Shown here piece by piece: positions 1 to 31,360 of a stretch of DNA of 64,000 bases. Location: contig CABMCB010000094.1 in assembly GCA_902384455.1 (NCBI GenBank), positions 32,001 through 96,000 on the forward strand, written 5' to 3'. Position 1 is the stretch's first letter. Every line of letters begins with the position of its first letter. This DNA comes from an uncultured archaeon (GTDB lineage: Archaea > Altiarchaeota > Altiarchaeia > IMC4 > SCGC-AAA252-I15). The notes under the pieces are model-generated. The model was not told where the DNA came from. It did no database searches and saw only the letters and a program-made list of their open reading frames with translations. Made by a program: the position numbers and the translations under genes.

Positions 1-159
1 GTCAAACCCTTACGAAAAAATAACTTCTCAACCCTCAACTCATTATCCCGGTTACTAGGCGCGTGCTTACCCATCCTCCACACACGTGAGGAACACGCAT
101 ATAAAAACCCAGATCCTAGCAAAATTGACTAATTTTAACTGTCCAGCAAATAACATACC

Positions 160-3100
160 ATGACCGAGGATTTTGATTTTAGCACTTTCCTAAACCAGGG
201 GGCTATAATTGATAACCGCCGGTCATTTAATGAAAAGACAGTAACTCTAAAAAGGGTTTTAGAGAGCCTTGCTAAGGGTTCTGAGGCGTTCAAATGTGCT
301 GTTGGATACTTTTACATTGAGGGTCTTTCTGAGATAATCAACTCCTTAGATAACTTCAAAGAAATAAAGATTTTGATGGGCAGTGAGACAACGCCAAAAA
401 CAAAGACAGAACTGATTAATGCATTCAAGAACGGCTTCGATAAAATAGAAAAAAATGAAACGACTATTCCCGCTATCCTACTTTTTCATAAGCTTGTTAA
501 AGAGGCAAAAACTCTAAAAGTAAAAGTCTACTTGGGTGAAGATGGTAACTTCCAAAGACTACACTCAAAACTATATTTGTTCATAAAAGATAACGAATCA
601 AAAGAAGCCTTAGATAAGTACAAGGCCGCGGTTGTCGGATCATCCAATTTAACCCCGAGCGGTTTAATCGGCAATACTGAACTTGATGTAATAATTGAAA
701 GAAGGCCGGATTTACAGTATCTTGAGAAGTGGTTTGACGGTCTGTGGACAATTGGGACTGAGGAATTCGAGAAACTCAGGGTATCTGATGCAATAATTGA
801 AGCTATCGAAAAGTCGAAGTTTGGGGAGCATCTAAATGAATCGTATACTTACCTAGAACCGGTTGAGTTCTTTACCGTATTAATAAAATTCCTAAAAGCA
901 GATTATCTCTTTGAAGACTGGAAGAAATCAGGACTGTTCAAATTCCAAGTTATTGACACTATACGGTGTTTACGGCTCTTTAGGGAAAAGGACTATCGGG
1001 GCGTATTCTTAACCTCCTCAGTAGGTTTAGGTAAATCCTATGTGGCCTGCCAAATATCTGAAATACATTTACGCGAAAAAAAGGACGTACTCATAATAGG
1101 TCCAGCAAACCTTGTGCAAAGCGAAGACCAATGGCCGAGGTATCTAAAGGAGTTTAATCTTATTGGGAAAGTCCACCTTGTCTCTATGGGGGCTCTTCAG
1201 GACGATCCAGGCATAGTTTTCAACAAGAGATTTGTCAATTATTCCACCGGTGGAAAAGTTAAACTTGATAGCGAAAACAAATATGACCTCATTATTGTTG
1301 ACGAAGCCCACAACTATCGTAACCCCGATGCTTACCGCACACGCAACCTAAAGAGGATAATAGATTTAAACGGTAAAGCAAAGATACTTTTCTTAACTGC
1401 CACGCCGATTAATACACGCCTAGAAGACTTGATAAACCTGATTAACTTATTCCACCGACCCGGCGCGAATCTTTACTTTGATAAGATAATCCGTGACTTT
1501 AAGGCCATCCTAGGACATTTAGCGACTACTGAATTTGAGGATTTAACCGAATACGAAAGGGGTGAACTGGTTAAATTGCAGGAAGAAGTTGAAAAAGAAT
1601 TGTTTGTCAAATCAACAAGAGAAACAATAAAATCAGATGAAACATACATCCAAGAACTCAAGTATTTTACTGGTGTAGACATAACCAACATACCAGACCC
1701 CACTGTTGAGGGGGAGGTATATGTCCTTCATGAGCGTTACAGGCCCATTGTGAATGGAATTGTAGATTTCATAAATAGCCTAAGTGCAGCACACCTACGG
1801 ATAGTAGACCCCGAGAAGGGTATTAGGTTAGGTGGATTCTTCAAATGGGTGCTTTACAAGAGATTTGAAAGCAGTATCTACGCATATTACCTAACTCTGA
1901 CAAGATTAGCCAAGAAAAACATAAGCATTGAATCTGCAATACAAAACCGAGATATTAAATACCTTGAACCTGAAGACGAAGATGATATCCCGATCACTTT
2001 TGAGCTTGACTTCAAAGAAAATCTTCAAAAAGTTATCGACAAAATAAAACAGGGGAAAGGCGCAGAACACCTAGCAATCTTATCTGAACTCACAAAGGAT
2101 AGGGAACTGATTCAGGAAGAACTGAAAAAATTGACGCCCTTACTCAACAAAAAACAAATATTCGAGGACGACAAAAAACTAGAGAAATTAGAGCAAACAC
2201 TCAGAGAACAAAAAAATAAGAAGATACTTGTCTTTACCGAATACAAAGACACACTAAAAGCAATAAAGCAAGTAATAAGCGAAAATTTCGACCAGGAAAC
2301 AATAAGATTCGTCTCCTCAGACACAAAAAACAAAGAAGGGATAATAGAAAAATTCAACAACAAAAACTCCAACCTTAGAATACTAATAACTACCGACACC
2401 CTATCTGAAGGAGTTAACATAAGCGGGGCGGATATCGTAATAAACTACGACATACCCTACAATCCCGTAAGAATCATCCAAAGAATCGGTCGTGCAACTA
2501 GACTAGACAATCCCAAAGAGGTCCTAGTTATAAACTATAAACCTGATTCGGACATAGACAAAGAGCTTGAATTAGTCTCTAAGATGGATCTCCGAATCAA
2601 GGACATAATCAAATTCGTAGGAGTAGACTACAGAGTATGGATTGACAAAGAAAATGAGGTAAAAAAACTCTTAGAAGAAAGACGAGCAAGAGATAGGGTA
2701 AACTATGCCAAAGTACTAGAAAACATAAGAAACGACGTATGGTCCGGAGACTTCTCAGACCTCGAATCCAAGATACAATACACAAAACCGTCGCTAATCC
2801 TATTACAAAAAGCAATAAACAAATACCACCTGAAAAGAGAGGATATAGAAAAAACACAAGAAATACCACAAAAAGCGTACACCTGCCTGCAAGGACAACA
2901 TAACCTATCTGTATTCTACGGTAATGGAGAAACATTCAACGAAGAGCATCTCTCAAAAATCGACATAAAAGAGACGCGAAAAGAGATAATACTCGAAAGA
3001 GAATTCAAGAACGAATTAGATGACTTTTCAGAGCAACTAAAGAAGGAAAAACAAGAGGAGTTAAGCCTTAGGTATTATAACGACCGGATTGATAGAAAAA

Positions 3101-3375
3101 TCTACGATGTACTAGACATACTCAAAGCCGAGGGGTATACTGAGATATATCCAAAATCTAAGGGGTTTATTGATGTATTATTATCCGTTAAAGACAATTG
3201 TGGGGGTACTACAGAACAAGTTGTAAATAGAATACATAACGATATACGCAAAATATCAAATCAGAATTTAGATGAATGGATAGAGCGTATAACTATGAGT
3301 TTCACAAGAAAACACGTGCAAGAAAAACTAGTCAAAGAATCAGAGCACCGGCTAGCATTAGCACTCATTGAATAA
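160..3375 (+). CDS. PLD-family nuclease domain fused to SF2 (SNF2-like) helicase, R-M associated
   Basis: N-terminal HxK motif (LHSKLYLF...VGSSNLT). Helicase motifs VGLGKS, DEAH, TATP, SEGVN and QRIGR. Adjacent to a Type IIG methyltransferase. Confidence 0.85.
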   Translation: MTEDFDFSTFLNQGAIIDNRRSFNEKTVTLKRVLESLAKGSEAFKCAVGYFYIEGLSEIINSLDNFKEIKILMGSETTPKTKTELINAFKNGFDKIEKNETTIPAILLFHKLVKEAKTLKVKVYLGEDGNFQRLHSKLYLFIKDNESKEALDKYKAAVVGSSNLTPSGLIGNTELDVIIERRPDLQYLEKWFDGLWTIGTEEFEKLRVSDAIIEAIEKSKFGEHLNESYTYLEPVEFFTVLIKFLKADYLFEDWKKSGLFKFQVIDTIRCLRLFREKDYRGVFLTSSVGLGKSYVACQISEIHLREKKDVLIIGPANLVQSEDQWPRYLKEFNLIGKVHLVSMGALQDDPGIVFNKRFVNYSTGGKVKLDSENKYDLIIVDEAHNYRNPDAYRTRNLKRIIDLNGKAKILFLTATPINTRLEDLINLINLFHRPGANLYFDKIIRDFKAILGHLATTEFEDLTEYERGELVKLQEEVEKELFVKSTRETIKSDETYIQELKYFTGVDITNIPDPTVEGEVYVLHERYRPIVNGIVDFINSLSAAHLRIVDPEKGIRLGGFFKWVLYKRFESSIYAYYLTLTRLAKKNISIESAIQNRDIKYLEPEDEDDIPITFELDFKENLQKVIDKIKQGKGAEHLAILSELTKDRELIQEELKKLTPLLNKKQIFEDDKKLEKLEQTLREQKNKKILVFTEYKDTLKAIKQVISENFDQETIRFVSSDTKNKEGIIEKFNNKNSNLRILITTDTLSEGVNISGADIVINYDIPYNPVRIIQRIGRATRLDNPKEVLVINYKPDSDIDKELELVSKMDLRIKDIIKFVGVDYRVWIDKENEVKKLLEERRARDRVNYAKVLENIRNDVWSGDFSDLESKIQYTKPSLILLQKAINKYHLKREDIEKTQEIPQKAYTCLQGQHNLSVFYGNGETFNEEHLSKIDIKETRKEIILEREFKNELDDFSEQLKKEKQEELSLRYYNDRIDRKIYDVLDILKAEGYTEIYPKSKGFIDVLLSVKDNCGGTTEQVVNRIHNDIRKISNQNLDEWIERITMSFTRKHVQEKLVKESEHRLALALIE

Positions 3376-3381
3376 TCAAAG

Positions 3382-6300
3382 ATGAGGATACAGGACATCT
3401 TAGGGGGGGGACAAAAACTTGAGGAATTTTTAATAGAAAAAGGCTATAAAGTTGAAACTGAGTATATTGACAAAGAATATCCCTCAGCACTTTTTATTAA
3501 GTTAGATAAAAGACGATTACTAGCAATTATTGAATTATCTAATGAAGAATCTATTAAGGAAATAAAAAATTATTTTCTTATTGATAAAGGATTAACCCAT
3601 TGTTGTTTGATTCTTCCTCAAAAACTGTTATTCTTTAGGAACTTCGGTGAACGAAGATATTTCCTATACTCTCAAAGGACTAGTGATTCAATTTCAAAAA
3701 TCGACAAACTAGATAAAATAAATGATGATTTTGATTTGTTATTCCAAACTCGAGATGTCTCTGGCGACTTTTACGAAAAATTTAGACTTAAACGAGATTT
3801 TCTTGTCAGGCATATACAGAATGATTTTGAGTCTCCAGAAAAATATCTCATTGCTCAAAAAATATTTGATAGAATCTTCTTTATCTATTTTTTGTGTCAT
3901 AAGGGTATAATAAAATTTTCAGATGGTCGTGCTATAGGGGGGAAATCTCTATTTAAAATACTGCTTGAAAATGGCGAATTCACAAAAAATTTAAAAAATT
4001 TATTCCATCTATTCAATGACGTTGAAGGAAAGTCCATTAAGATTGGTGATAATGTTATCTTAGTACCATATCTTAATGGTGGCCTTTTTCGCCCAGATGT
4101 TTTAGAGCTAGATTTAGATATTTCTCTCACAAATAAAGATTGGAATTCTATCCTAGATTTTCTTAATGACTATCATTGGATTATAGAGGACGATATTACC
4201 GTAGCTGTCCACGACGAAGAAAAAGTATTAACTCCCGAGATATTGGGGCATGTTTATGAACGGGGTGTAGTTGAATGGGAGAATATTGGTTATAATAATG
4301 CTGCAGATGAATCTACAGGTAAAAAGTCGATAAGTGAAAGGAAGAAGAAGGGAGTATATTATACTCCCGAAGAGATTACTGACTATATATCTAGAAACAC
4401 AATTTTCCCATATATCCTTGAAAAATTTGGGGGAAAGTATTCGAGTATAGAAGATATCTTGGATATTGGGGATAAATCAGATTTAGAAGAATTAAAAAAT
4501 ATTTCATTAAATCTGAAGATATTAGACCCTGCATGCGGTAGTGGGGCTTTTTTAATAAATGCGGCCGAAATTTTGTTCTATCTTAATGCAAGAATAAATT
4601 CAAAGCTGGGTATAAAACAGAGATATTATGACATTAAACTTGATATTGTAACAGAAAACATATATGGTGTTGATATACTGCAAGGATCTTCAGAAATATC
4701 AAAGTTACGACTATGGTTATGGTTGATAGCTGATTATGTTGACGTAGTAGATATCAAAGCATTACCCAACATCGAGTATAACATCCGTGTAGGGAATAGT
4801 CTCGTTGGATGGATAGATGAAAAATTGGCCCAGATACCATTAAGGAGCCCACTAACAGATGAGATAGTGGGAATATTCAAAGGACTTAGGGTATACTCAA
4901 ATAATCAAGATACGCAAAAAATTGAAAAAGCTAGAGCATTATTAGGGGATAATGAATGGACCTCAAATAACCCTACCCATCCATTAGAGCGGTATATAGA
5001 AGCATATTCACTTCTCTACTCGATATATAGGAAATCTCATGGGATTAAGGCTGAAAATTTAAAGGGCATAATCGAAACTATTCGAAAAGCAATTTACTCG
5101 AGTATAAGTCCCGGATATTACGAGTATGTTAATGACCGCTTAAAAAAAGACCATATTCGCCCTATTCCGTATACTGAATTTTACCAATTAAAACCATTCC
5201 ATTGGAGAGTAGATTTTGGGGATATTATCAAGAGGGGGGGATTTGATATAGTAATTGGAAATCCACCTTATGTCGATGCACAAACCCAATCATCTAAATA
5301 TGAAAAAACAACGATTAAGGCGCTGTATTTGTCATACACAAATAATTGTGATTATTATGTTCCGTTCATTGAGCTAGGTGCAATAAAACTATGCAGTAAA
5401 GACGGTAGGTTCTCATATATCTGCCCAAATAATTTTTTAAAGCTAGAGTATGGTAAAAACATAAGGAAGCTATTAGAAGGGAGAGTGTATGAGATAGATG
5501 ATTTTGGAGCAAACCAAGTATTTTATGGGTCAGATATCACTAACTATTCCCTTTTGATATTTTCTAGAGGCAAATGTAAGATTCTGGATTATCGATATTT
5601 TAAGTATAAAAAAGATTTTGAACCTATCCTTAAGTCGGGTAGATTAAACTTTTCTTATCCAGCTGATGAATTTGAAGATAATATTTCATATCATTCATTA
5701 TATCAAGATTATAAGGGATTTGTACTTTTTAATGAAAGTCCCTGGATTTTTTTAACAAAGCTTGAGGAGAAATATCTCCCAAATATAATAACAGATAATA
5801 TTCCATTAACTGAAGTTATTGGTGCAAAAATCCATGAAGGAAGTAGTACCGGAGATGATGATTTCTATCTCTTAGAGGATTGTAAAAACAAGAAGGGTTT
5901 GATTGAGGGTTTTTCTAAACTGAAAGAGGAGAGGATTACTATTGAAAAAGAGTTATGTAAAAAATATGTTAAAAGAATATCTGAAGACTTCAGGATAGTT
6001 GATGAAAATATGTTCTTGGTATTTCCATATAAAAAACAGGGCGACGGATACATTTCCCTCTCCGAAAAAGAACTAAAAAAATACTCGATTGGTTATCCAT
6101 ATTTCAAGGAATTTAGGGGTAGACTGGAAAAACGAGAAGACATTAAGAAGAAATCAAATTTTGAAGACACGTGGTTTCTATTCTCTGCAGCGAGAAGTTT
6201 AGAGTATTACGATAAAAACAAGATTATTATGAAATTTACCTCTAAAGACAAACCAAAATTTGCTATCGATAAAGAGGGATACTTTCATAATGCTTCGATT

Positions 6301-6591
6301 AATAACATCACGATAGAGGCATCTATTGATATCCCGGTAGAAGTGTTATTCAATATTCTAGTTTCAGATTTTACAAAATATTTTATTGCAAGGTTTGGTA
6401 CTTTTCTCAGGGGGGGGTATATTAGATATGAAGAACGTTTTTTGAAAAATTTACCAATACCAAAAAAGATAAAGACGAAAAGATGTACGGATATGAAAAC
6501 TAGTTATGGATATGATTCCTTATTTGATAAATTTATTGAAAAATTTTTAGAAGAATGGATTTCAGATAACGGTAATTCAGAACTGCAATAG
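3382..6591 (+). CDS. Type IIG (Eco57I-like) restriction-modification enzyme / N6-adenine DNA methyltransferase with target-recognition domain
   Basis: YLNGGLF, GVYYTP, DPACGSGAF (SAM binding), GNPPY (catalytic), and a C-terminal TaqI-like region (LKNLPIP). Strongly AT-rich. Confidence 0.88.
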   Translation: MRIQDILGGGQKLEEFLIEKGYKVETEYIDKEYPSALFIKLDKRRLLAIIELSNEESIKEIKNYFLIDKGLTHCCLILPQKLLFFRNFGERRYFLYSQRTSDSISKIDKLDKINDDFDLLFQTRDVSGDFYEKFRLKRDFLVRHIQNDFESPEKYLIAQKIFDRIFFIYFLCHKGIIKFSDGRAIGGKSLFKILLENGEFTKNLKNLFHLFNDVEGKSIKIGDNVILVPYLNGGLFRPDVLELDLDISLTNKDWNSILDFLNDYHWIIEDDITVAVHDEEKVLTPEILGHVYERGVVEWENIGYNNAADESTGKKSISERKKKGVYYTPEEITDYISRNTIFPYILEKFGGKYSSIEDILDIGDKSDLEELKNISLNLKILDPACGSGAFLINAAEILFYLNARINSKLGIKQRYYDIKLDIVTENIYGVDILQGSSEISKLRLWLWLIADYVDVVDIKALPNIEYNIRVGNSLVGWIDEKLAQIPLRSPLTDEIVGIFKGLRVYSNNQDTQKIEKARALLGDNEWTSNNPTHPLERYIEAYSLLYSIYRKSHGIKAENLKGIIETIRKAIYSSISPGYYEYVNDRLKKDHIRPIPYTEFYQLKPFHWRVDFGDIIKRGGFDIVIGNPPYVDAQTQSSKYEKTTIKALYLSYTNNCDYYVPFIELGAIKLCSKDGRFSYICPNNFLKLEYGKNIRKLLEGRVYEIDDFGANQVFYGSDITNYSLLIFSRGKCKILDYRYFKYKKDFEPILKSGRLNFSYPADEFEDNISYHSLYQDYKGFVLFNESPWIFLTKLEEKYLPNIITDNIPLTEVIGAKIHEGSSTGDDDFYLLEDCKNKKGLIEGFSKLKEERITIEKELCKKYVKRISEDFRIVDENMFLVFPYKKQGDGYISLSEKELKKYSIGYPYFKEFRGRLEKREDIKKKSNFEDTWFLFSAARSLEYYDKNKIIMKFTSKDKPKFAIDKEGYFHNASINNITIEASIDIPVEVLFNILVSDFTKYFIARFGTFLRGGYIRYEERFLKNLPIPKKIKTKRCTDMKTSYGYDSLFDKFIEKFLEEWISDNGNSELQ

Positions 6592-6626
6592 TCTGTCACA
6601 AGTTAACTCGAGTATATTATTTGTTC

Positions 6627-7712
6627 ATGCAAGTACATGAACAAAAGATACGTCTTGAGCATAAGCGGGCTGTTATCCATTCTTTTTCGCCTTATCTGGC
6701 AACTTTTCCGGATGAGATTCCGAAGTACGTTATCGACAGGTTTCTGCCTCCTGCGGCGTTGAGGAAGAATTGCGGCGGCAAGAAGCTGATTCTAGACCCA
6801 TTTTGCGGCTCTGGGACCACGCTCGTCGTGGCGGCCGAGAACAATGTGAAGGCTATTGGGGTGGATTTTAATCCTATGGCGGTTTTGATTTCGAACGTCA
6901 AGTGTCGTCCTTTCTGTGAGCGGGATTTTGCGGATGCCGAGGCGCTGCTTGAGGAGATCAGCGGGTGTTTGCCTTTCTCCGGCGGCAGAAACATCGATTT
7001 GTCGGTGGATTTGGATAAGGTGAAGTACTGGTTTCACTCCAAGGTCGCGGATGACCTATTTACGTTGAGGGACGTTATCATAGGATGCAGGAACGAGAAG
7101 GTCAGGAACCTGGCGCTGGTAGTCTATGCCGTCACTTTGAGGGCCTGCAGCTATGCAAAGAATGACACTCTTTCGAGGGCGAGGAAGACGTACGCGATAA
7201 TCGAGGCCTCTCGCGCCAATGCCTTCAGGGATTTCGCCGGGCGGTTCGAGAAGGCGTTGACGTTGAAGCGGGATCAGAAGTTGCTGGTCGCGGATAATAT
7301 GGCTGTGGAGGGGGATTCTAGGCGTCTTTTCTTCGATGACTGCTTGTTTGATTGCATTGTGACGTCGCCGCCTTACATAGCGAGCATCAGCTATTCGACT
7401 CCTTTCGATTTGTTCTACGTCTTCATGAACCAGCGGATTGAGAAGAAGGGGTTCATCAACGGCGAAGACAAGGAGAAGTTCTTCGACGGCATGAAGCAGG
7501 CGTATAACGAGATGTTCAGGGTCTTGAAGAAAGACGCTCCGTGCGTGATGGTCGTCGGCGAGCGGGAGGTGAAAGGCACGATAGAACACATGGTTGAGGC
7601 CGGATTCGTCCTTGAGGAGAAGTTGTTTTACGACATCAAAGGCGGATGCCGCGGCTTTTTCCACGGAATAAAGAGGCTGAAGGAATACGTGCTGGTGTTC
7701 CGTAAGCCTTAG
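6627..7712 (+). CDS. Orphan DNA amino-methyltransferase, probably N4-cytosine (alpha motif order)
   Basis: HSFSPYLATFP, then LDPFCGSGT, then VTSPPY. The ATG at 6627 is preferred over the TTG at 6621. Confidence 0.8.
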   Translation: MQVHEQKIRLEHKRAVIHSFSPYLATFPDEIPKYVIDRFLPPAALRKNCGGKKLILDPFCGSGTTLVVAAENNVKAIGVDFNPMAVLISNVKCRPFCERDFADAEALLEEISGCLPFSGGRNIDLSVDLDKVKYWFHSKVADDLFTLRDVIIGCRNEKVRNLALVVYAVTLRACSYAKNDTLSRARKTYAIIEASRANAFRDFAGRFEKALTLKRDQKLLVADNMAVEGDSRRLFFDDCLFDCIVTSPPYIASISYSTPFDLFYVFMNQRIEKKGFINGEDKEKFFDGMKQAYNEMFRVLKKDAPCVMVVGEREVKGTIEHMVEAGFVLEEKLFYDIKGGCRGFFHGIKRLKEYVLVFRKP

Positions 7713-8005
7713 AATTCAGCCGAGAAGTCGGGGTTGATGAGGCCTATTATTTTGTTGGCCTCGTTTATCGTTTCTTCCTTCTTGCAGGGGTCTTTGAGGT
7801 AGATTTGTATCGTGCCGGAGGTGAAGAACAACACCGAGGCGTCGGGTAGGTGGACTATAACCCTGTTGGTTATGTCCGGGTTGTATTCGGCTGAATACTT
7901 CTCGTTCAGCAACTGATAGAGCTTGTCAAGGTTGATCCGATTCTTTATCCTGCCCTTCAGCATCATACCGCATACTTTGTAGTCCACTTCGACACCCCCA
8001 CTCAT
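7709..8005 (-). CDS. Single-repeat TATA-binding-protein (TBP)-like protein
   Basis: 98 aa match one TBP repeat by eye: INLDKL..AEYNPD...VIVHL.DASVLFFTSGTIQI...EETINEANKII versus the typical LDLE.I..AEYEPE.FPGLVYRL..PKVT.LIFSSGKLVI.G. Confidence 0.75.
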   Translation of the reverse strand: MSGGVEVDYKVCGMMLKGRIKNRINLDKLYQLLNEKYSAEYNPDITNRVIVHLPDASVLFFTSGTIQIYLKDPCKKEETINEANKIIGLINPDFSAEF

Positions 8006-8050
8006 AGTCTAAGTTCTTGGTTATCCCGTGACTTGTCGTTTTAGCTAGTC

Positions 8051-8485
8051 CTATCGGTAGGCATCTATGTTCTTCTCCACCGTCCCTAGGAATTCCTTAA
8101 CCTCCCTTATCTTGTCTTTGGTTATCATGACGTCGCCGAAGTTCTCCCAATGGCCTCCCTTCTTCTTGGCTTCTTTGATTCGTATGAAGGGTTTTCCGTA
8201 CTGGGATATGAAAGTGTCCAGGAACAGGATGTGGTCTTGGTCGAGCCTGACCCTCTTCTGCCATTTCCCGTTTCCGTTGAAGAAGTAGATTATGGAGTTG
8301 CCTAGGCGTTCGCTGTTGACCCTGCCGATGGACTCCAAGTAGTCCATGTGTTTTTGCACTGTCGCCCAGGCAAGGTTAGTTCCTTCTGATACTTGGTTTG
8401 TGGATGCCTTCTTGTTCTTCGCAAGGAAGCACTCTATCCGCTTTCTCGCCTCGTCCTCGACTTCGTTGTGAGTCGGCTCTTTCAT
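8051..8485 (-). CDS. Winged-HTH protein fused to a PUR/PC4-like single-stranded nucleic-acid-binding domain
   Basis: Start reassigned to MKEPTH (ATG at 8485). The wHTH reads STNQVSEGTNLAWATVQKHMDYLESIGRV plus a wing. The C-terminal LFLDTFISQYGKPFIRIKEAKK...VMITKDKIREVKEFL resembles the PUR/PC4 fold. Confidence 0.7.
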   Translation of the reverse strand: MKEPTHNEVEDEARKRIECFLAKNKKASTNQVSEGTNLAWATVQKHMDYLESIGRVNSERLGNSIIYFFNGNGKWQKRVRLDQDHILFLDTFISQYGKPFIRIKEAKKKGGHWENFGDVMITKDKIREVKEFLGTVEKNIDAYR

Positions 8486-8505
8486 GAGATAGATTGCGCT
8501 CTCGC

Positions 8506-8514
8506 GATATAAAG
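8506..8514. promoter_or_regulatory. TATA box in the divergent intergenic region (TTTATA on the minus strand, ~25 bp before the ATG at 8485; TATAAA on the plus strand)
   Basis: gatataaag; the spacing fits a leaderless archaeal promoter. Confidence 0.5.
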
Positions 8515-8608
8515 AACTTCTCTCAGAGAGCATGGGAAAAGTTTCATTTTTCCTGTGGACATCGACGAAACCCACAAGTGAACCAACTGCATCATATGTT
8601 ACCTCAAA

Positions 8609-9022
8609 ATGGACAACAAACTTTTCACCAGAACCGTATGGAAGCCCGAGAAGGGCGAATACATCGTGGAGATAGAGGAAATGGGGAAGATGCTCGTGGA
8701 CACGCCCTACGGGAAACGCAAGGCCGTTTTCATCAAAGTGGGCGGGGAGCCGTACGTCTGGTTCATAAACCACTACGGCAAGGTGGTGGAGAAGGCCATA
8801 GAAACGCGGCTTGACGGCATACTCTCTAAGAGGAAATCGGGCAAGGCGCTTGTCAAGGTCACTGTGGATGAGGCGGACGGGAGGAAGCTCTATGACATTG
8901 AGGAAGTCAAAGCTACGCCTGAGTCCATCGTCGTTTCCGTCGGTATATACGTGAGCGACGGCGAAGGCGAGGACTACCACCTCATCCACTCTGACACGAT
9001 ACCCGTTGGAGGTAAGAAATGA
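8609..9022 (+). CDS. Hypothetical beta-rich protein, possibly OB-fold ssDNA-binding; first gene of the transfer operon
   Basis: 137-aa ORF with alternating beta-strand pattern (WKPEKGEYIVEI...TPYGKR.AVFIKV). Its stop overlaps the pilin start (ATGA). Confidence 0.55.
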   Translation: MDNKLFTRTVWKPEKGEYIVEIEEMGKMLVDTPYGKRKAVFIKVGGEPYVWFINHYGKVVEKAIETRLDGILSKRKSGKALVKVTVDEADGRKLYDIEEVKATPESIVVSVGIYVSDGEGEDYHLIHSDTIPVGGKK

Positions 9023-9345
9023 AGGAAAAACTTTGGATCACGATGTTTGCGGTGATGGTGATGACGCAGATTGCGGTCGCGGGTCTGGGGGACATAAACG
9101 ACCCCAGCCAGGGGATAGCGATAAACGAGTTCCTCTGGAACGTCATAAACCTCATACGGTTCATAGCCGCCGCAGTCTGCGTACTCGCCCTAAGCTGGGC
9201 TGGCCTAGTCATGATATTCGGCCTCTTCGGAGGTACGGAGAACCACGCCAGAGCCAAGGAAATAGCAGGAGCCGCGATACTAGGCCTCATCCTGGTTGTG
9301 CTGGCTCCGAGCATAGTGAATTGGATAGTCAACGGGATTCACTGA
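9019..9345 (+). CDS. VirB2/TrbC-like conjugative pilin
   Basis: 108 aa with a signal-like N-terminus and two hydrophobic segments separated by ARAKEI..AILGLILV, typical of the TrbC/VirB2 family. Lies upstream of VirB6/VirB4-like genes. Confidence 0.7.
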   Translation: MKEKLWITMFAVMVMTQIAVAGLGDINDPSQGIAINEFLWNVINLIRFIAAAVCVLALSWAGLVMIFGLFGGTENHARAKEIAGAAILGLILVVLAPSIVNWIVNGIH

Positions 9346-9365
9346 AATCCCGTCTTTCCCCATCA

Positions 9366-10784
9366 ATGAACTTTCGAGCCCTCGTAGTCTTGGTCTTTCT
9401 GTCCCAGGCGGCGGCAGCACTCGGCTATACGAACCTGCCTCAGATGAACCTGACAATAGCCACGCCGCCCTACCAAGTAGTCTGGGGCTACAACCTGGTT
9501 CGCGGCAATTCCACGAGCGGGCCGCCCAACGGGACCGTCCTCTCCCAGGGTTCGGGGTTCACGGACGCGTGGGTGAAGATACTGGCGTTGGACAAGGCCG
9601 TATTCGACAGCGAGATCAACTCCTCGTACGCGTCAAGGCAGGGGCAAGTGCTCTCCAAGTACGGCTACACGCCAGTCTGTCCGCCCTCGGACTACTGCTG
9701 GCCAAGCTGCATAGGCACGCGATACGAGTACGCAGGCTCGACAGGAAGATTCACCCTCTTCGCCAACGGGCAGTTGCAGGGCAGCAACGCGATACAGGGC
9801 TACAGCATTCCTGACACGGCAACTCAATTGAATCTTAACGCGCAACTAAACGTGGACACGCGGTGCAGGAAATACAAGCTCAGGTTGCGCGTAGATCCGA
9901 ACACCGGGCTGAGGTACTGCAATGAACGCTACTTCGGCGTGGTGACGTTCAGCGGGGTCGTAAGCGATAAGGCAGCCTACGGTCTCTTCGACCTTAAGCC
10001 GCAGGCTAACGTTTCCTTTCAGCGCATCGCCCAAGACGTTTCCGAAATCAGCCGAGGAAGGCTGACTGTCAGAACGGCAGCGCCCTACTCCAATCTCACG
10101 TTCATTCTGGGAAACAACTCCCTGTCCTACTCCGGGAACGCCTACGACGTCGGCTACTACCTACCCGACTACAACCTCCTGAGGGTAAGCACATACGGCC
10201 TCTCGAGGATAACGCAGTACGGCCTATTCTCAAACGTTTCAAGAGCCAGAGAAAACGGGAGCGGGGTCGTGGTTACAGACGTGGATTTCACTTTGACGTA
10301 TGGCGAAACCAAGGCCCTACTTCAAAGGAGGATATGTAGGCTCATCGTCGAAGACTTGTTCAAGCGGCAGTACGTGCTCGAAAATCTCTGTCCAACGGAC
10401 TGGAAGCAGCCTGTAATCGACGCCTCGACCAACGGCAGGATATTCGCCGACAACGGCGAAGTAAACATATCCGTATCTTTGGCTTACAACGGAACCCAGA
10501 TTCCGGGCAGACGGGTGTTTGTTCGCTACGCGAATAGACAATACGCTAAGACTACGGACTCTAATGGCAAGGCGGACTTCGTCTTCAACGCGGAGTATCC
10601 AAACAATAGGGTAGAGGTCGAGTTTCCCGGCGACGGCGTTTACCTAGGTTGCTCCAAGACGGTCTTGATAGCCGTTTCAGACTCCGAGGTGAAAGATCTG
10701 TTGGCTCAGATACTGCCTGCCTTTCTGGTATTCGTAATATCGGTCTACGGGGCGTATCGGATGCTCAAGTTCTGGGGGTTATAA
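9366..10784 (+). CDS. Secreted, C-terminally membrane-anchored protein with Ig-like domain (putative mating-pair/adhesin)
   Basis: True start MNFRALVVL (ATG 9366) with a signal peptide. Ig-like motif TTDSNGKADF and a C-terminal TM helix. Confidence 0.65.
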   Translation: MNFRALVVLVFLSQAAAALGYTNLPQMNLTIATPPYQVVWGYNLVRGNSTSGPPNGTVLSQGSGFTDAWVKILALDKAVFDSEINSSYASRQGQVLSKYGYTPVCPPSDYCWPSCIGTRYEYAGSTGRFTLFANGQLQGSNAIQGYSIPDTATQLNLNAQLNVDTRCRKYKLRLRVDPNTGLRYCNERYFGVVTFSGVVSDKAAYGLFDLKPQANVSFQRIAQDVSEISRGRLTVRTAAPYSNLTFILGNNSLSYSGNAYDVGYYLPDYNLLRVSTYGLSRITQYGLFSNVSRARENGSGVVVTDVDFTLTYGETKALLQRRICRLIVEDLFKRQYVLENLCPTDWKQPVIDASTNGRIFADNGEVNISVSLAYNGTQIPGRRVFVRYANRQYAKTTDSNGKADFVFNAEYPNNRVEVEFPGDGVYLGCSKTVLIAVSDSEVKDLLAQILPAFLVFVISVYGAYRMLKFWGL

Positions 10785-11690
10785 ATGAGGAAACTAGTTC
10801 TAGCTGTCCTGAGTATAGCGTTCGCCACCTCCACAGCCTCAGCGGACTTGATAGGGGACTTGGGAAAGACTCTTGTCGAGGCGGTGTATACGCCAGCCTA
10901 CAACGCAGTATACGCCCTGCTCACGGCGTTCATGCAGCTTGTTTTGGATATCCTAGTCTGGAACCCTCCGCTCGACTCCGCATATGACGCCTGGAGCATA
11001 GTGCGGACCGTCATAACGTCGATGTACCTCGTGGTGTTGACGTATGCAGGCCTCAAGTTGATGGCGGGAACGATGGTCGGGGAGAATGAGCGGTCTACGC
11101 TGAAGAAGTGGGTCGGCGGCTCGATACTCTCCCTACTCCTCGTGAACATGTCCTATGTCTTGTACGAGTCGGTCATCCAGCTTAACGTGGGCCTGTCTGC
11201 GCTCGTCTACAAGCAGCCAAACATCCAGGGGTTCATAGCGGCATCCGCCGCCTTCATCATACTCCTCTCCTTGCAGACCTCAATCGTGATGCTGGTCATC
11301 CTCCTATTGATAGTGAGGACGCTATTAGTTTTGGTCGGCGTGGTACTGTTCCCTATAGGCATCTTCCTCTACTATCTCCCGCCGACGAGAAGGTTCGGGA
11401 AGCTGATAATCACCGTCATATTCGCCAACATATTCATCCAGTTCTTCGAGGTCCTATGCCTCAGGGTCTGCCTGGACATGTTCGGCGCCATCGGCGGAAG
11501 CTTCACTAGCTCAGTCTTTAACACCATGTTCGGCATGGCGATGATGCTCCTGATGCTCTTCGTGCCTCTAGTGTCCTACGGCTTCGCTACTCTGACAGGG
11601 ATGATACTACAAAAGGCCACGGAAGTCGTAACAAACGTCGTCCCCATGCCCGTACACCTTGACACGTTCAGGACGAGGGGGAAGCAGTAG
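10785..11690 (+). CDS. VirB6/TrbL-like polytopic T4SS membrane protein
   Basis: Multiple TM helices, the motif RTLLV..GVVLFPIGI...LPPTRRF, and its position between the pilin and PrgI/VirB4. Confidence 0.7.
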   Translation: MRKLVLAVLSIAFATSTASADLIGDLGKTLVEAVYTPAYNAVYALLTAFMQLVLDILVWNPPLDSAYDAWSIVRTVITSMYLVVLTYAGLKLMAGTMVGENERSTLKKWVGGSILSLLLVNMSYVLYESVIQLNVGLSALVYKQPNIQGFIAASAAFIILLSLQTSIVMLVILLLIVRTLLVLVGVVLFPIGIFLYYLPPTRRFGKLIITVIFANIFIQFFEVLCLRVCLDMFGAIGGSFTSSVFNTMFGMAMMLLMLFVPLVSYGFATLTGMILQKATEVVTNVVPMPVHLDTFRTRGKQ

Positions 11691-12551
11691 ATGGCGTACG
11701 ACATACCGCAGGAATTGAAGTACAAGGAGATATTCGCCTACGGCATGACCTTAAAGCAGTTCATCTACGGGGCGATATTCGGCATGGCGGCGGTCCTGAT
11801 ACTGTCGCAAGACAAGATTCCGTGGGAAATAGGGGCGGTCGCCGGAATCGTCCTCATGGGCATTGCGGTGCTCCTCGGATTCTTCGACTTCGACAAGAAG
11901 ATAATCGAGTTCATATCCTACCTGCGAACCCCGAAGAACATAACGTTCCTGACGAAGGAGGCCTCCCAGTTCCTCGGCGTAAAGTACCTCAAGGACTCGG
12001 CGATAGTGCTCAAAGACGGCACCCTCGTTGGCGTACTCAAAGTAGAGGCCATAAACTTCTCCATCCTCTCCAAGGAGCAGAAGGACGCGGTGATACACAA
12101 CTTCATGAACTTCCTGAACTCTCTGGGCTTCAGGATACAGATCATAATGCGGACGGTGACATTGGACATGACCCCGTACCTTAGGAACATGGAATCCAAG
12201 ACGTCCGCCAACGCAGAAGGCGGCCTCGCCGAGTCCTACAGCCTAAAGGAGTTTCTCCAAAACTACGTCCAAACGAACAAGGTGACAGACAGGGTATTCT
12301 ACATAGCAGTGCCCCTGAGAAACGCAGGCCCTTCCGTCAAAACGATCAGGGGATCGGGTAAAGAGTCGCTTGCGTTCAGGGAGCTTGAGGAGAGGATGGA
12401 AGTCGTCCGCGAGTGGCTCTCAAAGTCGATGCTCAACTCAAAGAGACTGGACAACACAGGCCTTCTGGCGTTCTTGGCCTCGTTCTTCGACGACGGCGTT
12501 AAGCTGGATGCGGGATGCACAAGTCCCTACACGGACTATAAAGGTGACTAG
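11691..12551 (+). CDS. PrgI/VirB3-like protein with TraE-associated C-terminal domain
   Basis: YDIPQELKYKE..AYGMTLKQF plus two TMs (PrgI signature), then VLKVEAINFSILSKEQ...FLNSL.F.IQI. Confidence 0.75.
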   Translation: MAYDIPQELKYKEIFAYGMTLKQFIYGAIFGMAAVLILSQDKIPWEIGAVAGIVLMGIAVLLGFFDFDKKIIEFISYLRTPKNITFLTKEASQFLGVKYLKDSAIVLKDGTLVGVLKVEAINFSILSKEQKDAVIHNFMNFLNSLGFRIQIIMRTVTLDMTPYLRNMESKTSANAEGGLAESYSLKEFLQNYVQTNKVTDRVFYIAVPLRNAGPSVKTIRGSGKESLAFRELEERMEVVREWLSKSMLNSKRLDNTGLLAFLASFFDDGVKLDAGCTSPYTDYKGD

Positions 12552-12552
12552 G

Positions 12553-14874
12553 ATGGTCTGGAAGAAGACGCCTAAGGAAAAGACTGACGAGGAGCTCGCG
12601 GAGGAGGCGAGGATAGAGGAAGGCCAACGTATGAACAGGATAATATTCCCCAACCTCATCCAGAACCGGATGAGCGAGGTCAAGATAAACGACAGATGGA
12701 ACAGGCTGATTTCTGCGGACGGCTACCCAAGAAGCGTCAGCGACGGCTGGCTTGACAAGCTGGTTTCCATGTCCGGCAACTTCGACATGGCGATACACAT
12801 AGAGCCTCTCGAGCTGAACAACGTAATGAACCAACTCAACAGGGAACTTAGAAAGCAGGCAAGCGACATAAACACCCTATCCAAGAAGGGCGAGATAATC
12901 CCGACGTCCCTCCAAATCCAGCACGAGGACACCAAAAGCGTCCTACGCGTCATCCAGAAGGGCGAGGAAAAGATGTTCAACGTATCGATATACGTCAGCC
13001 CCAAGGCCGAAAGCCTGGAAGAACTCGAACTGCTGACTAAAAGAGTCAATGCGACGTTGAACAGCGTGATGATAGTACCTAAGATACCGACGATGCGAAT
13101 GCTCGACGGCCTGAAAAGCATCCTGCCTTTCGCGCAAGACAAACTCAAGATAACGAGAAACATCACTTCCTCGGCGTTGGCCGCCTGCTTCCCCTTCACC
13201 ACGTCGGGCCTCAAGATAGAGGATAATGGCGTGATGTTCGGCGTAAACTCGAACAACAAAATCCCCGTGATAATAGACCCGTTCGAACTCAACAATCCCA
13301 ACGGGCTAATCCTGGCTACGTCAGGCGCGGGCAAGAGCTTCTTCGTCAAGATATTCGAGATACGGGAGCTATTGCAGGGCGTAAACGTCATAAACCTAGA
13401 CCCACAGGGCGAGTACACCAAACTCACCGAAGCCTACCACGGGCAGTCAATCAAGATATCCAAGGACTCGGACACCGTCATAAACCCCTTTGACATGATG
13501 GGCATGGACTACGCGGACAAGATAGCTTCGCTGCATTCGCTGATGCACACGATAGTTGAGGACATAACCTCGCCGCAGCAGGCCCTCCTCGACGACGCAT
13601 TCAGGAGAATCTATCTCGAGGCGGGGATAACCGAGGAGAAACACACGTGGAACAACACGCCGCCCACGTTCAGCGACCTCTATTCCGTGATCAAGGGGAA
13701 GGAGTCGGACGAAAACCACTTTACTCGGGCCTCGGCCATGGCGTTGACTAACCGCCTCAGGATGTTCACCGAAGGGTCGCTCAAGTTTCTGAACCAGCAG
13801 ACGGACTTGGACTTCGACAACCGCATGGTGACGTTCGACATAAGCCAGGTGCCTAAACTCGCCAAACCCGCGATGATGTACACAATCCTGGAGTACATAA
13901 TGCACAAGATGAAGCATGACATGAAGCGGAAGATATTCGTCATAGACGAAACTTGGCTGCTCCTACAGCATCCGCAGGCCGCAGAACGGATATTTGAGAT
14001 AGTCAAGACTAGCAGGAAATACAACATGAGCTTCATCCTCATAACTCAGGAGGTGAATGACCTCCTGAGTTCACAGGCCGGAAACTCCGTTCTCGCCAAC
14101 ACAGCCTGGAAGCTGCTCCTAAGACAAGACCCCTCGGTAATCGACTCCGTATCCAAGACGTTCAAGCTCAACTACGGCGAAACCATGCTGTTGATGAACG
14201 CCCAACCCGGCGAAGGGATACTCATGGCGTACAACAACCACATACCGTTGAAGGTCATCGCCTCCAAGAGGGAGTACGACATAGTGACGACTAAGCCAGA
14301 AGACCTACTCAAGCTGGAGCCTAAGACGCAGCCGCAAAAGCTGGAAACTTTGGAAGAGCCCAAGAAACGGTTCGACATAACAAGAAAACTCCACTTGAAA
14401 AGCGAGTTGACGCCAGGGCAGATAGACATACTCAAACGGAGCGGCTTCAAGGAAATACGGGACCCCAGTTTTGTCAAAGGACGCGGGCCGGTGTATCTTG
14501 TGAATAACACCACCGTAGAATCGGACGAACACTTCATCCTACGGCAGCTCGTCTACGACGAAATCAGGAAATACACCGGGGACTTGACGCACAACTTCAC
14601 CAAGGAACCGGACATAGTATTCAAGACCCCAGAAGGTAAAGCCATCGCAGTCGAGATAGAGACGGACAAGTCCCCCAAGTCCAAGGAGCAACTGGAGCTG
14701 AAACTGAGCATACTACAGAAATACGACGGATGGTTCTTCATACTCACAAACTACGAGTCCTTCCCCCACTACGGAACCTACGGGGAAACGATAACCCGGA
14801 CAAAAGTCCCGGAGAAGATCAAGTCATACTTCAGGACTCCCGGAAACGAACCAAACCCGGAAACGGCAACCTAA
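12553..14874 (+). CDS. virB4: VirB4/TraE-family conjugation ATPase with C-terminal PD-(D/E)xK-like domain
   Basis: Start MVWKK (ATG 12553). Walker A ATSGAGKS, DPQGEY, Walker B VIDETW, RKY...ITQ. The C-terminus has EPDIVF...IAVEIET. Confidence 0.85.
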   Translation: MVWKKTPKEKTDEELAEEARIEEGQRMNRIIFPNLIQNRMSEVKINDRWNRLISADGYPRSVSDGWLDKLVSMSGNFDMAIHIEPLELNNVMNQLNRELRKQASDINTLSKKGEIIPTSLQIQHEDTKSVLRVIQKGEEKMFNVSIYVSPKAESLEELELLTKRVNATLNSVMIVPKIPTMRMLDGLKSILPFAQDKLKITRNITSSALAACFPFTTSGLKIEDNGVMFGVNSNNKIPVIIDPFELNNPNGLILATSGAGKSFFVKIFEIRELLQGVNVINLDPQGEYTKLTEAYHGQSIKISKDSDTVINPFDMMGMDYADKIASLHSLMHTIVEDITSPQQALLDDAFRRIYLEAGITEEKHTWNNTPPTFSDLYSVIKGKESDENHFTRASAMALTNRLRMFTEGSLKFLNQQTDLDFDNRMVTFDISQVPKLAKPAMMYTILEYIMHKMKHDMKRKIFVIDETWLLLQHPQAAERIFEIVKTSRKYNMSFILITQEVNDLLSSQAGNSVLANTAWKLLLRQDPSVIDSVSKTFKLNYGETMLLMNAQPGEGILMAYNNHIPLKVIASKREYDIVTTKPEDLLKLEPKTQPQKLETLEEPKKRFDITRKLHLKSELTPGQIDILKRSGFKEIRDPSFVKGRGPVYLVNNTTVESDEHFILRQLVYDEIRKYTGDLTHNFTKEPDIVFKTPEGKAIAVEIETDKSPKSKEQLELKLSILQKYDGWFFILTNYESFPHYGTYGETITRTKVPEKIKSYFRTPGNEPNPETAT

Positions 14875-15667: not shown

Positions 15668-15750
15668 GCGGGGGTGCCGGAGTGGTCAAACGGGCAGGGC
15701 TTAGGACCCTGTGGCGAAGGCCTACGCGAGTTCGAACCTCGTCCCCCGCA
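15668..15750 (+). tRNA. trnL: tRNA-Leu (anticodon TAG), long variable arm, CCA not encoded
   Basis: Acceptor GCGGGGG/CCCCCGC-A, D-loop GGAGTGGTCAAA, anticodon arm CAGGG-CTTAGGA-CCCTG, T-loop GTTCGAAC. Confidence 0.95.
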
Positions 15751-15952
15751 AACCTTTTTCTTTAGAAAAGAAAAAGCGCAACGAAGACGTCGGTCTTCGT
15801 GCGCACCGAGACGAATGTCTCGGTTGCGTTGATGGAAAAAGAAACTGTTTGTTTGAATGCTCGAACGGGGTGGGGTCAGGATTAACCTAAAACTGGGGGA
15901 GGGGTGTCCCCTCCCGCGGTTTGGTACTCGTCCCCCGCAAACCTTTTTCTTT
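15738..15952 (+). repeat. 26-bp direct repeat of the tRNA 3' end and T-tract (att-like), flanking a hairpin-rich insert
   Basis: CTCGTCCCCCGCAAACCTTTTTCTTT at 15738-15763 and 15927-15952. Confidence 0.85.
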
Positions 15953-30234: not shown

Positions 30235-31197
30235 CTAAACTTCGTAACCTAATTCCCGCGTAAGCTCCTCATACCTATTGCGGATAGTAATCTCGGTCAC
30301 ACCCGACAGCTTCTCAGCAATCTCCTTCTGAGTGTAACGCTCACGAGTAAGCTTCCCAGCCAAATAAATAGCAGCAGCCGCAACACCAGTAGGACCGCGG
30401 CCCGACGTAATACCCTTCTCGCGGGCCCGCTGAATTATTTCCATAGCCTTCGCCTCAGTCTCCCCGCTTATTCCCAACTCGCTAGCGAACTTAGGAACAT
30501 AATCCATGGGAGTCGCAACAGGCATCTTAAGGCCGAGTTTGCGGCAGCAGAAGCGGTAACTTTTTCCGATGTCCTTCTTGCTTTTGCCGGTCGCCTCGGA
30601 AAGCTCGTCCAGCGTCTTAGGCTGCCCGTGCTTCCGGGTTACGAAATATACGATTGCGGCAACAACACTCTCTATGCTGCGCCCCCGCGTCAGCCCCTGA
30701 TTGACGGCTTTGCGGTAAATCATGGCGCACTCCTCCTTTATGTTGTTGTTTATGGAAAGGAAACTGCAGACTCGGTCCAACTCCGGAAGCGCAATAGAAA
30801 GGTTCCTGTGGACGCTGTCGCTCATGCGGCTGCGCCGCTGCCACTTACGCAGACGATACAACTGAGCCTTCCTCTCCGGCTGAATGTTACCCCCGCGAAT
30901 GTCGCGATCATAACGGTCGATTTCAGTGGTAAGACCTTTGTTAAGCTTAGCGAACTTGACTGGGCCGCCGGTGCGGCTTCTTTTGGCGGTCTGCTCCTGA
31001 TCGAACGCCCGCCACTCCGGACCGCTGTCGATAAGATTTTCCTCAATAACGGTGCCGCATGCTTTGCAGACTATTTCAGCGTGCTTGCGGTCCGTGAACA
31101 AGTTTCCGCTGCCGCATTCAGGGCAGACCTTTATTTCTTCTCCGGGGGTAGACTCAGGTTTTTCCCCCTTCACCATTTGCATTGATTTAACTGTCAT
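30235..31197 (-). CDS. tfb: Transcription initiation factor IIB (TFB)
   Basis: Zn ribbon CPECG...CKACG, IDSGPEWRAF, and two cyclin repeats (RGRSIE, SGRGPTG, VTEITIRNRY). The exact start is uncertain (31197 or slightly downstream). Confidence 0.96.
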   Translation of the reverse strand: MTVKSMQMVKGEKPESTPGEEIKVCPECGSGNLFTDRKHAEIVCKACGTVIEENLIDSGPEWRAFDQEQTAKRSRTGGPVKFAKLNKGLTTEIDRYDRDIRGGNIQPERKAQLYRLRKWQRRSRMSDSVHRNLSIALPELDRVCSFLSINNNIKEECAMIYRKAVNQGLTRGRSIESVVAAIVYFVTRKHGQPKTLDELSEATGKSKKDIGKSYRFCCRKLGLKMPVATPMDYVPKFASELGISGETEAKAMEIIQRAREKGITSGRGPTGVAAAAIYLAGKLTRERYTQKEIAEKLSGVTEITIRNRYEELTRELGYEV

Positions 31198-31360
31198 CTT
31201 AGAACCGTGTAAAAGGCAGAATGAAGAGTATATTGCTTCTTTACCGCTTAAAAAAGAGGCAGTATTCAAAAAGTTACCTGATTTCGGCCGGATTCTTATT
31301 CTTTAGCATTTTTTAAGGGGGGAACATAAAGAGTGGATGACAGTTTTTGTAGGCACTCAC

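Follow-up and report, generated by a model that had tools for sequence, protein, structure and literature searches.

The DNA considered here is a window of 64,000 nucleotides (C94:32001-96000) of contig CABMCB010000094.1 from an uncultured archaeon of the Altiarchaeota, and the subject of this study is a small minus-strand gene in it, which encodes one repeat of the TATA-box-binding protein (TBP), where canonical archaeal TBP has two. The protein is called half-TBP below. Judging by profile matches and predicted structure, half-TBP is a single-repeat member of the TBP family with the TBP fold. Its gene belongs to a family of similar genes standing in a fixed place beside a module that encodes a VirB4-type ATPase and a VirB2-type pilin, and a short conserved DNA element (the box) precedes the half-TBP gene as well as the secretion-type operon divergent from it. 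The fixed link with the VirB4/pilin module and the candidate DNA target of a single-repeat TBP family are the new results of this work.

The minus-strand open reading frame (ORF) at 7709..8005 has its own ATG and stop codon, encodes 98 amino acids (aa) and contains the motifs EYNPD, LFFTSG and NPDITNR, so that the complete frame and the TBP motifs reported in a first-pass annotation of this DNA were all found again. The Pfam family PF00352 (TBP) was matched with 30.1 bits (cut-off 22.9, E 4.3e-7), with residues 8-85 aligned to profile positions 1-76 of 85, and no other Pfam family appeared at E<=10. Precomputed assignments to PF00352 were also present for 26 of the 30 clusters of the half-TBP family. 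The scores with the NCBIfam models of full-length TBP were far below their cut-offs (18.7 bits vs 181 and 17.7 vs 278). In a phmmer search of the Protein Data Bank (PDB), each of the two repeats of Pyrococcus woesei TBP was matched weakly (E ~8e-4), and in an hhalign comparison the family profile paired with the C-terminal repeat of the host TBP (E 9.5e-4). The AlphaFold2 model, built with an alignment of 16 relatives, has a mean pLDDT of 87.6 and shows the order strand, helix, four strands, helix (E14-19, H26-34, E38-41, E48-53, E56-61, E65-70, H73-90). When this model was compared with PDB by Foldseek, the first 39 (ranks 1-43) of the 43 chains listed (to rank 49) were TBPs or TBP complexes, with query-normalised TM-scores of 0.62-0.72 and an rmsd of 1.8-4.1 A over ~89 columns. 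Therefore, the TBP fold, for which a structural check had been suggested earlier, stands on Pfam, PDB sequence, AlphaFold2 and Foldseek results together. Canonical TBP carries two tandem repeats in one chain, and half-TBP has one repeat in 92-98 aa. A fold search of BFVD found mostly TBPs of giant viruses and a few small proteins, with nothing decisive; in the ESM Atlas, PF00352 was assigned to 27 of 30 feature matches, including clusters of 76-104 aa partly labelled as viral, which are leads only; and in PHROGs there was only a weak match (E 0.048).

The length of 92 aa corresponds to a later start codon. In 7 loci, GGGGGTG or a near variant precedes a start of the type (A/G/T)TG-GAC-TAC, and most relatives of half-TBP open with M-D-Y-K. 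Because of this conserved motif and these N-termini, translation probably begins at the GTG at 7987, with the ATG at 8005 lying in the leader.

About 34 relatives of half-TBP are known, all of them single-repeat proteins of 67-144 aa, most of 87-101 aa. A word-indexed search gave 16 clusters (67-144 aa, 58-78% identity) in addition to the query's own cluster at 100%, and a profile search increased the family to 30 clusters in the same length range (16 + 14, clustered at 90% identity). Among 5520 candidates, the family profile had no match outside the family at E<=10. In an exhaustive phmmer search of 1.84 billion representatives, 6 proteins were listed: the query, two relatives (92 and 123 aa) and three tandem-repeat proteins. 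The long proteins P0017, P0020 and P0021, built of tandem repeats, did not look TBP-like by eye and were rejected as relatives. The same was done with the L016 match (40% over 57 residues of a 309-aa protein), which was considered spurious, and with a weak match to a 227-aa frame (G038, E 6.5e-4). No fused or longer form of half-TBP was found among 8000 longer-protein candidates, which is weak evidence. No match was obtained by tblastn of the 98-aa protein against plasmids and against phages, by a scan of viral contigs with the half-TBP alignment or by a scan of genome contigs with the single protein.

In the host genome, the family profile matches only once. No second TBP repeat is present near half-TBP, whose flanks are a methylase gene and a winged-helix gene, so that the stand-alone state stated in the first-pass annotation was borne out. 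That annotation had also named relatives consisting entirely of two-repeat TBPs as the sign of a truncated pseudogene; all true relatives have a single repeat. Identity of half-TBP to the host TBP is 22% in a MAFFT alignment and 26% over 65 columns in the hhalign one. NG86 dN/dS was 0.06-0.22 in 6 of 21 pairs of half-TBP genes, dS being saturated in the other 15, and by these ratios the gene is under purifying selection.

The surface with which TBP holds DNA appears to be modified in half-TBP. A canonical TBP repeat has two DNA-kinking (intercalating) phenylalanines, and half-TBP keeps only the second of them. At the position aligned to the stirrup Phe, all 26 family members have Thr or Ser (Thr46 in half-TBP), in agreement with the replacement (NPDITNR) noticed earlier, while at the position of the second intercalating residue (Phe61) there is Phe in 25 of the 26 and Tyr in one. 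Three of four alignments support this placement of Thr46 and Phe61; the fourth, the second domain of the PDB phmmer match, shifts the stirrup by a few residues. The stirrup Phe-Pro-Gly is replaced by an invariant (T/S)-N-R, and the S3-S4 loop is two residues shorter than in canonical TBP. Invariant or nearly invariant positions of the family are N47, R48, H52, L59, F60, F61, S63, G64, T65, Q67 and Y69. Among the most conserved residues, M15, H52, L59, F61, T65, Q67 and Y69 are aligned to the DNA-facing strands of TBP, whose contact positions are known from TBP-DNA structures, and N47 and R48 are aligned to the stirrup. Most half-TBP positions aligned to DNA-facing residues of TBP differ from those of TBP. 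Thus, this surface appears to be conserved and chemically unlike that of TBP, which fits a ligand other than the TATA box.

Comparison of the window proteins with eight related loci by tblastn revealed one gene order, namely methylase, half-TBP, winged helix-turn-helix (wHTH) protein, orf137, pilin, orf472, orf301, PrgI-like protein and VirB4. As far as the contigs reach, it is seen in the window and in loci L005/L008, L015, L012, L013, L014, L011 and L009. The methylase gene is convergent with half-TBP, the wHTH gene lies upstream of half-TBP on the same strand, and the operon from orf137 to VirB4 is divergent. A search for homologues next to virB4 had been recommended earlier, and half-TBP proved to be a fixed part of this VirB4/VirB2-pilin module across the related loci. 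In L009 and L011, the spacer (350 and 264 bp) contains no wHTH gene, and half-TBP is directly divergent from the operon. In all 6 loci with the wHTH gene the protein begins with MKEPTHN, and its identity is 77-88% among 5 aligned sequences. Its AlphaFold2 model (5-row alignment, pLDDT 49) was unusable. It was considered that the C-terminal part of this protein might supply another TBP-like half, with which half-TBP would form a heterodimer. A longer frame of 312 aa (8051-8989, minus strand) is an over-extension of this gene, since its N-terminal 168 residues cross intergenic DNA and the antisense orf137 (8609-9022, plus strand); the tblastn "conservation" in the over-extended part reflects orf137 on the opposite strand.

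Comparison of the intergenic regions showed one short block common to the upstream regions of half-TBP and orf137, with the consensus TC[G/C]ACAAGTCAA. Across the loci, its ACAAGT core starts 49-55 nt before half-TBP and 28-35 nt before orf137, in the same orientation to each gene. The core ACAAGT was found in 13 of 14 upstream regions and AC[AT]AGT in all 14 (7 loci with 2 genes each; L015, nearly a duplicate of L005, was left out). Among 2000 mononucleotide shuffles, the commonest 6-mer occurred in at most 6 of the 14 regions, with the reservation that relatedness of the loci inflates such counts; it is a stronger point that two non-homologous positions have the box in common while their flanks differ. 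In the half-TBP copies, the box reads GAC-AA-GTC, an 8-bp near-palindrome. A weight matrix found exactly two copies at >=13 bits in each related locus, with a third only in L015. This third, weaker copy (ATCCACAAGTCGTT, 14.0 bits) is situated at 4067-4080 on the minus strand, 15 nt before the methylase start. In L009 and L011, both boxes are kept despite the absence of the wHTH gene from the spacer.

As judged from its distribution, the box is a module-specific element. Of the 12 best matches elsewhere in the 2.4-Mb genome, 11 fall within ORFs of >=90 aa, and the idea of a general host promoter element was rejected on this ground. A 9-mer with one mismatch allowed shows no enrichment in the window (18 occurrences vs 14.5 expected), and it is the exact copy and the position that matter. 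Neither of the two units preceded by a box shows a clear TATA element at the usual place, in contrast to the wHTH gene, upstream of which a TATA-like TTTATAT is found. Another palindrome, CTCTCTGAGAGA, occurs with small 3' variations in 5 of the 6 loci with the wHTH gene (window, L005, L015, L012 and L013) and is not evident in L014. A search for sequencing runs listed no RNA run and one DNA run with a 0.12 share of words.

In our opinion, it is quite possible, though still short of probable, that half-TBP is a homodimeric, module-specific transcription regulator that binds the box. Two copies would pair and rebuild a TBP-like saddle with two-fold symmetry, and this saddle, rather than the wHTH protein, would bind the 8-bp near-palindrome (G/C)ACAAGTC within TC[G/C]ACAAGTCAA. 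The box stands upstream of both its own gene and the orf137-pilin-VirB4 operon, so half-TBP would switch the DNA-transfer-type apparatus on or off, whichever direction the control may take. A more far-reaching version, in which half-TBP would be a natural homodimeric TBP and the non-TATA sequence (G/C)ACAAGTC would replace TATA as the private promoter code of a mobile DNA-transfer module, seems unlikely to us. There is a precedent for regulation of this kind in Sulfolobales, where TFB3, a paralogue of a general factor, co-regulates the Ced DNA-import system, according to the accessible part of PMC9905601.

Several points weigh against box binding by a half-TBP dimer. Dimerisation and DNA binding are both proposed properties, and a prediction of the homodimer (two copies, 26-row alignment) gave scores of 0.27 and 0.24 vs a mark of 0.42, a result that does not bear on binding in either direction. 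It is equally possible that the box is an operator for the wHTH protein, which is much more strongly conserved (77-88% in 5 sequences) and may be encoded elsewhere in the elements represented by L009 and L011, because these contigs are only ~1.7 kb long. Further upstream of the operon there is a conserved A/T-rich stretch (GAAAA...TTTTCC), which could be the true TATA element of the operon; the box would then be a repressor site near the transcription start. Canonical TBP tolerates G:C pairs in the minor groove poorly, and the box contains G:C; moreover, one of the two intercalating Phe is lost in half-TBP. The symmetry of the box is partial, with AA in the centre and CAC...GTC in the operon copies. 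Finally, the shuffle control takes the loci as unrelated despite their shared ancestry.

According to a second and rather doubtful explanation, half-TBP would bind host TFB through its retained stirrup or cap host TBP, diverting or damping host transcription, and the box would be bound by the wHTH protein, which is a typical candidate for such a role. Competition with host TBP and sequestration of TFB had already been suggested in the first-pass annotation. The stirrup, whose residues in TBP are TFB contacts, has the form Y-N-P-(E/D)-hydrophobic, near both Y-E-P-E-Q in the C-terminal repeat of the host TBP and Y-N-P-K-N in the N-terminal repeat of the second host TBP, and two full TBPs and at least one TFB are available in the host as targets. 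However, the most conserved residues are aligned to the DNA-facing strands and not to the stirrup alone, and within the stirrup itself the invariant (T/S)-N-R has taken the place of Phe-Pro-Gly.

It is quite unlikely that half-TBP is a DNA-handling accessory of the transfer apparatus, which might, for example, bind or bend DNA at a transfer origin. TBP-like folds are indeed present in Rep_trans rolling-circle initiators, with the archaeal Rep-Arvir family adding a wHTH domain (described in the available part of PMC13107129), and in the N-domain of RNase HIII (mentioned in the passages of PMC3597702 on TBP-like domains). A wHTH protein is also encoded by the neighbour of half-TBP. If the module exports DNA, an unrecognised DNA-processing component would be needed, because no recognisable relaxase is encoded by the scanned ORFs. 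Nevertheless, Pfam at E<=10 gives TBP only, without Rep_trans (PF02486) or DUF7845, and the 43 PDB chains listed by Foldseek, the first 39 of which are TBPs, include no Rep_trans protein or RNase HIII. In addition, 92 aa are far below the Rep_trans catalytic domain of about 300 aa, and the boxes are placed just upstream of two start codons, in the manner of promoters or operators. An identity of half-TBP as a Rep_trans protein or relaxase was rejected, with PF00352 as the only family at E<=10, a length of 92-98 aa and a TBP-dominated Foldseek list.

It is hardly credible that half-TBP is a decaying, functionless fragment of a duplicated TBP gene, as its half length and the single-domain TbpA of Halobacterium, which according to passages of PMC3597702 closely resembles the full-length TBPs found in that species, might suggest, in view of the low identity to host TBP, the relatives of the same length, the low dN/dS where it is computable, the synteny fixed across two genera of the Genome Taxonomy Database (GTDB) and several metagenomes, the conserved ribosome-binding site and the failure of exhaustive phmmer and longer-protein searches to find a full-length relative; thus, a truncated TBP pseudogene is excluded as far as sequence evidence goes.

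The genes of the module and the regulatory features discussed above are collected in Table 1.

Table 1. Coordinates of half-TBP, neighbouring genes and putative regulatory features in the window
Feature	Position	Strand	Remarks
N6/N4 DNA methylase	6621..7712	+	PF01555 E 1.3e-19; 3' ends overlap half-TBP by 4 nt; adjacent in 7 loci
Half-TBP coding sequence	7709..7987	-	Probable GTG start, 92 aa; ORF from ATG at 8005, 98 aa; TBP family and predicted TBP fold
Shine-Dalgarno-like GGGGGTG	7993..7999	-	5 nt ahead of the GTG start; kept in 7 loci
Box 1 (AACGACAAGTCACG)	8027..8040	-	First base of the ACAAGT core 49 nt ahead of the half-TBP start
Winged-helix (MarR-like) gene, 144 aa	8051..8485	-	Weak Pfam HTH matches; PHROG MarR-family regulator E 1.7e-5
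TATA-like TTTATAT	8507..8513	-	21 nt before the wHTH ATG; putative TATA box
Palindrome CTCTCTGAGAGA	8519..8530	-	Just upstream of the wHTH TATA; possible wHTH operator
Box 2 (ACCCACAAGTGAAC)	8570..8583	+	First base of the ACAAGT core 35 nt ahead of the orf137 ATG
orf137, first gene of the secretion-type operon	8609..9022	+	No Pfam match; kept in 8 loci
VirB2/TrbC-type pilin	9019..9345	+	PF18895 T4SS_pilin E 1.5e-10
orf472	9366..10784	+	No family match; N-terminus hydrophobic by eye; probable start, from conservation
orf301	10785..11690	+	No family match; hydrophobic by eye; VirB6-like role is a guess
PrgI-family-like protein	11691..12551	+	PF12666 23.6 bits, below the cut-off of 27
VirB4-type ATPase	12370..14874	+	PF19044 E 5.3e-24, PF01935, PF12846, PF03135; L005 copy 74% identical
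tRNA-Leu (anticodon TAG)	15668..15750	+	VirB4 end of the module; L005 likewise has tRNA-Leu (TAG) there

In the first-pass annotation, half-TBP was assigned to a conjugative element, and this part of the description could be kept only partially. VirB4 and the VirB2-type pilin are present. However, Pfam searches of 40 ORFs (20 in the window, 10 upstream and 10 in L005/L014) found no relaxase, VirD4-type coupling protein or integrase, and VirB4 paralogues proved to be nearly universal in the lineage. Archaeal conjugative plasmids have no recognisable relaxase either, as stated in the available text of PMC9905601. Of the 61 genomes of the phylum, 45 have a VirB4 paralogue with 30-43% identity; among the 47 genomes of families f1-f6, it is present in 44. 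Since hardly any genome of the order lacks such a paralogue, a type IV secretion-like system seems to belong to the core gene set of the Altiarchaeales lineage; therefore, the module of the window is, by this gene distribution, an accessory, sporadic paralogue of the lineage-wide secretion-type system, placed in a variable island rich in restriction genes. The host itself has a second VirB4 (41% identical) with a PrgI-like gene and two orf301-like genes on another contig (L030, C92:11400-24400). As to the direction of transfer, export of DNA (conjugation) and import of the Ced/Ted type would both be compatible with the gene content.

Outside the module, the surroundings vary. Beyond tRNA-Leu, the genes of the window and L005, which represent two genera, are different, and the cargo beyond the methylase consists of an Eco57I-type enzyme and a phospholipase D (PLD)-helicase in the window, a type I system in L005 and a type III-like system in L014. 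The TFB gene (30235..31269) is a normal one, lying ~15 kb past tRNA-Leu at the VirB4 end, outside the module. An exact direct repeat of 26 bp (15738-15763 and 15927-15952, copies 189 bp apart) includes the 3' end of tRNA-Leu and resembles an attachment site left behind by an integrating element; the 117-kb contig showed no copy farther away. Directly after the second copy of this repeat there is a 535-aa ORF (15965-17572, minus strand) with no Pfam match at E<=0.01. A low-GC block (33-41% vs ~50%) covers positions 1-6600 of the window and C94:24000-32000 of the contig (L017), and its defence genes encode a PLD-nuclease/helicase fusion, an Eco57I-type methylase-endonuclease, GmrSD, a GIY-YIG/RAMA protein and a PD-(D/E)XK nuclease. 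A very long open frame of 2564 aa occupies positions 50632-58326 (minus strand), where GC skew and AT skew are both strong.

The distribution of half-TBP is patchy, with the limit that many of the surveyed genomes are incomplete. The family profile was matched strongly in 3 of the 61 genomes of the phylum (that of the window, G043, which belongs to the same GTDB family, and G033), with one further weak match. The closest named relative bearing half-TBP is the single-cell genome SCGC AAA252-I15, placed in Altiarchaeales by Bird et al. 2016 (in the available part of PMC4975002); it is probably G043, to judge by identical match values. In another genome (L031, G050:C3, ~8050-9940), VirB4 is cut down to its C-terminal 520 aa (79% identical) and accompanied by the next small ORF, with no other genes of the module, and this copy is apparently a decayed remnant. 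The host genome (2.41 Mb, 103 contigs, 92% complete) encodes two full-length TBP paralogues in frames of 181 and 187 aa (C71:184228-184770 and C32, about 609-1170); the second is near the start of a 47-kb contig.

Stand-alone TBP domains were described before. In Pyrococcus and Thermococcus, monopartite TBP-domain proteins of 82-136 aa were reported by Brindefalk et al. 2013 (PMC3597702, Table 3) as distinct from TBP and from Halobacterium TbpA, and the passages devoted to them give neither function nor genomic context. Like half-TBP, these Thermococcales proteins consist entirely of one TBP domain, are far from the host TBP and have a predicted TBP fold. Half-TBP corresponds to a monopartite protein in having a single TBP domain, fewer than 150 aa and no adjacent second domain and in not being a mis-annotated TBP. 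Because of this description in Euryarchaea, the idea of a half-TBP is less new than the first-pass annotation had implied. Half-TBP differs from the Thermococcales proteins in belonging to an Altiarchaeales-related lineage and in its fixed position beside a VirB4/pilin module with a conserved box, and its family, with no profile match outside it at E<=10, is apparently a separate sequence cluster. PMC3597702 was the only paper found, from its available text, to treat stand-alone TBP domains, and no paper was found that links such domains to type IV secretion or Altiarchaeota; the supplements of PMC3597702 and PMC9905601 might list related genes. TbpA of Halobacterium also has a single TBP domain and is apparently functional and non-essential, as the available passages of PMC3597702 report; its homologues cluster there with full-length TBPs of their own species, whereas half-TBP is only 22-26% identical to the host TBP. 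With canonical archaeal TBP, half-TBP shares the Pfam family, the fold, the Y-x-P-E stirrup and the F-x-S-G strand motif with the second Phe, and differs in having one repeat and not two.

Some likeness also exists to systems of Sulfolobales and related ones. TFB3, which is truncated relative to TFB, is comparable with half-TBP by functional analogy only. It is a general-factor paralogue that regulates Ced, a system related to type IV secretion (accessible part of PMC9905601), and differs from half-TBP in belonging to the TFB family, in being chromosomal and in its induction by DNA damage. Ced/Ted and archaeal conjugative elements, as described in the same source, resemble the module in their VirB4-type ATPase, VirB2-type pilin, membrane proteins and lack of a recognisable relaxase. 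In its text on Ced/Ted, the words "TBP" and "TATA" have 0 occurrences, and no TBP-like component is mentioned.

The half-TBP family offers a genomic partner in the form of the VirB4/pilin operon, a candidate DNA element with two copies in each locus, and natural variants in which the wHTH gene is either present or missing. If half-TBP does not bind the box as a dimer, its gene would be just another of the small regulator-like genes in archaeal genomic islands. If it does, it would be an example of DNA recognition by a symmetric TBP, and of a gene module equipped with a private variant of a general transcription factor. TBP is thought to have descended from a one-repeat protein that acted as a homodimer, and half-TBP, provided that its interpretation as a homodimeric TBP is true, would be a living model of this proposed ancestor.

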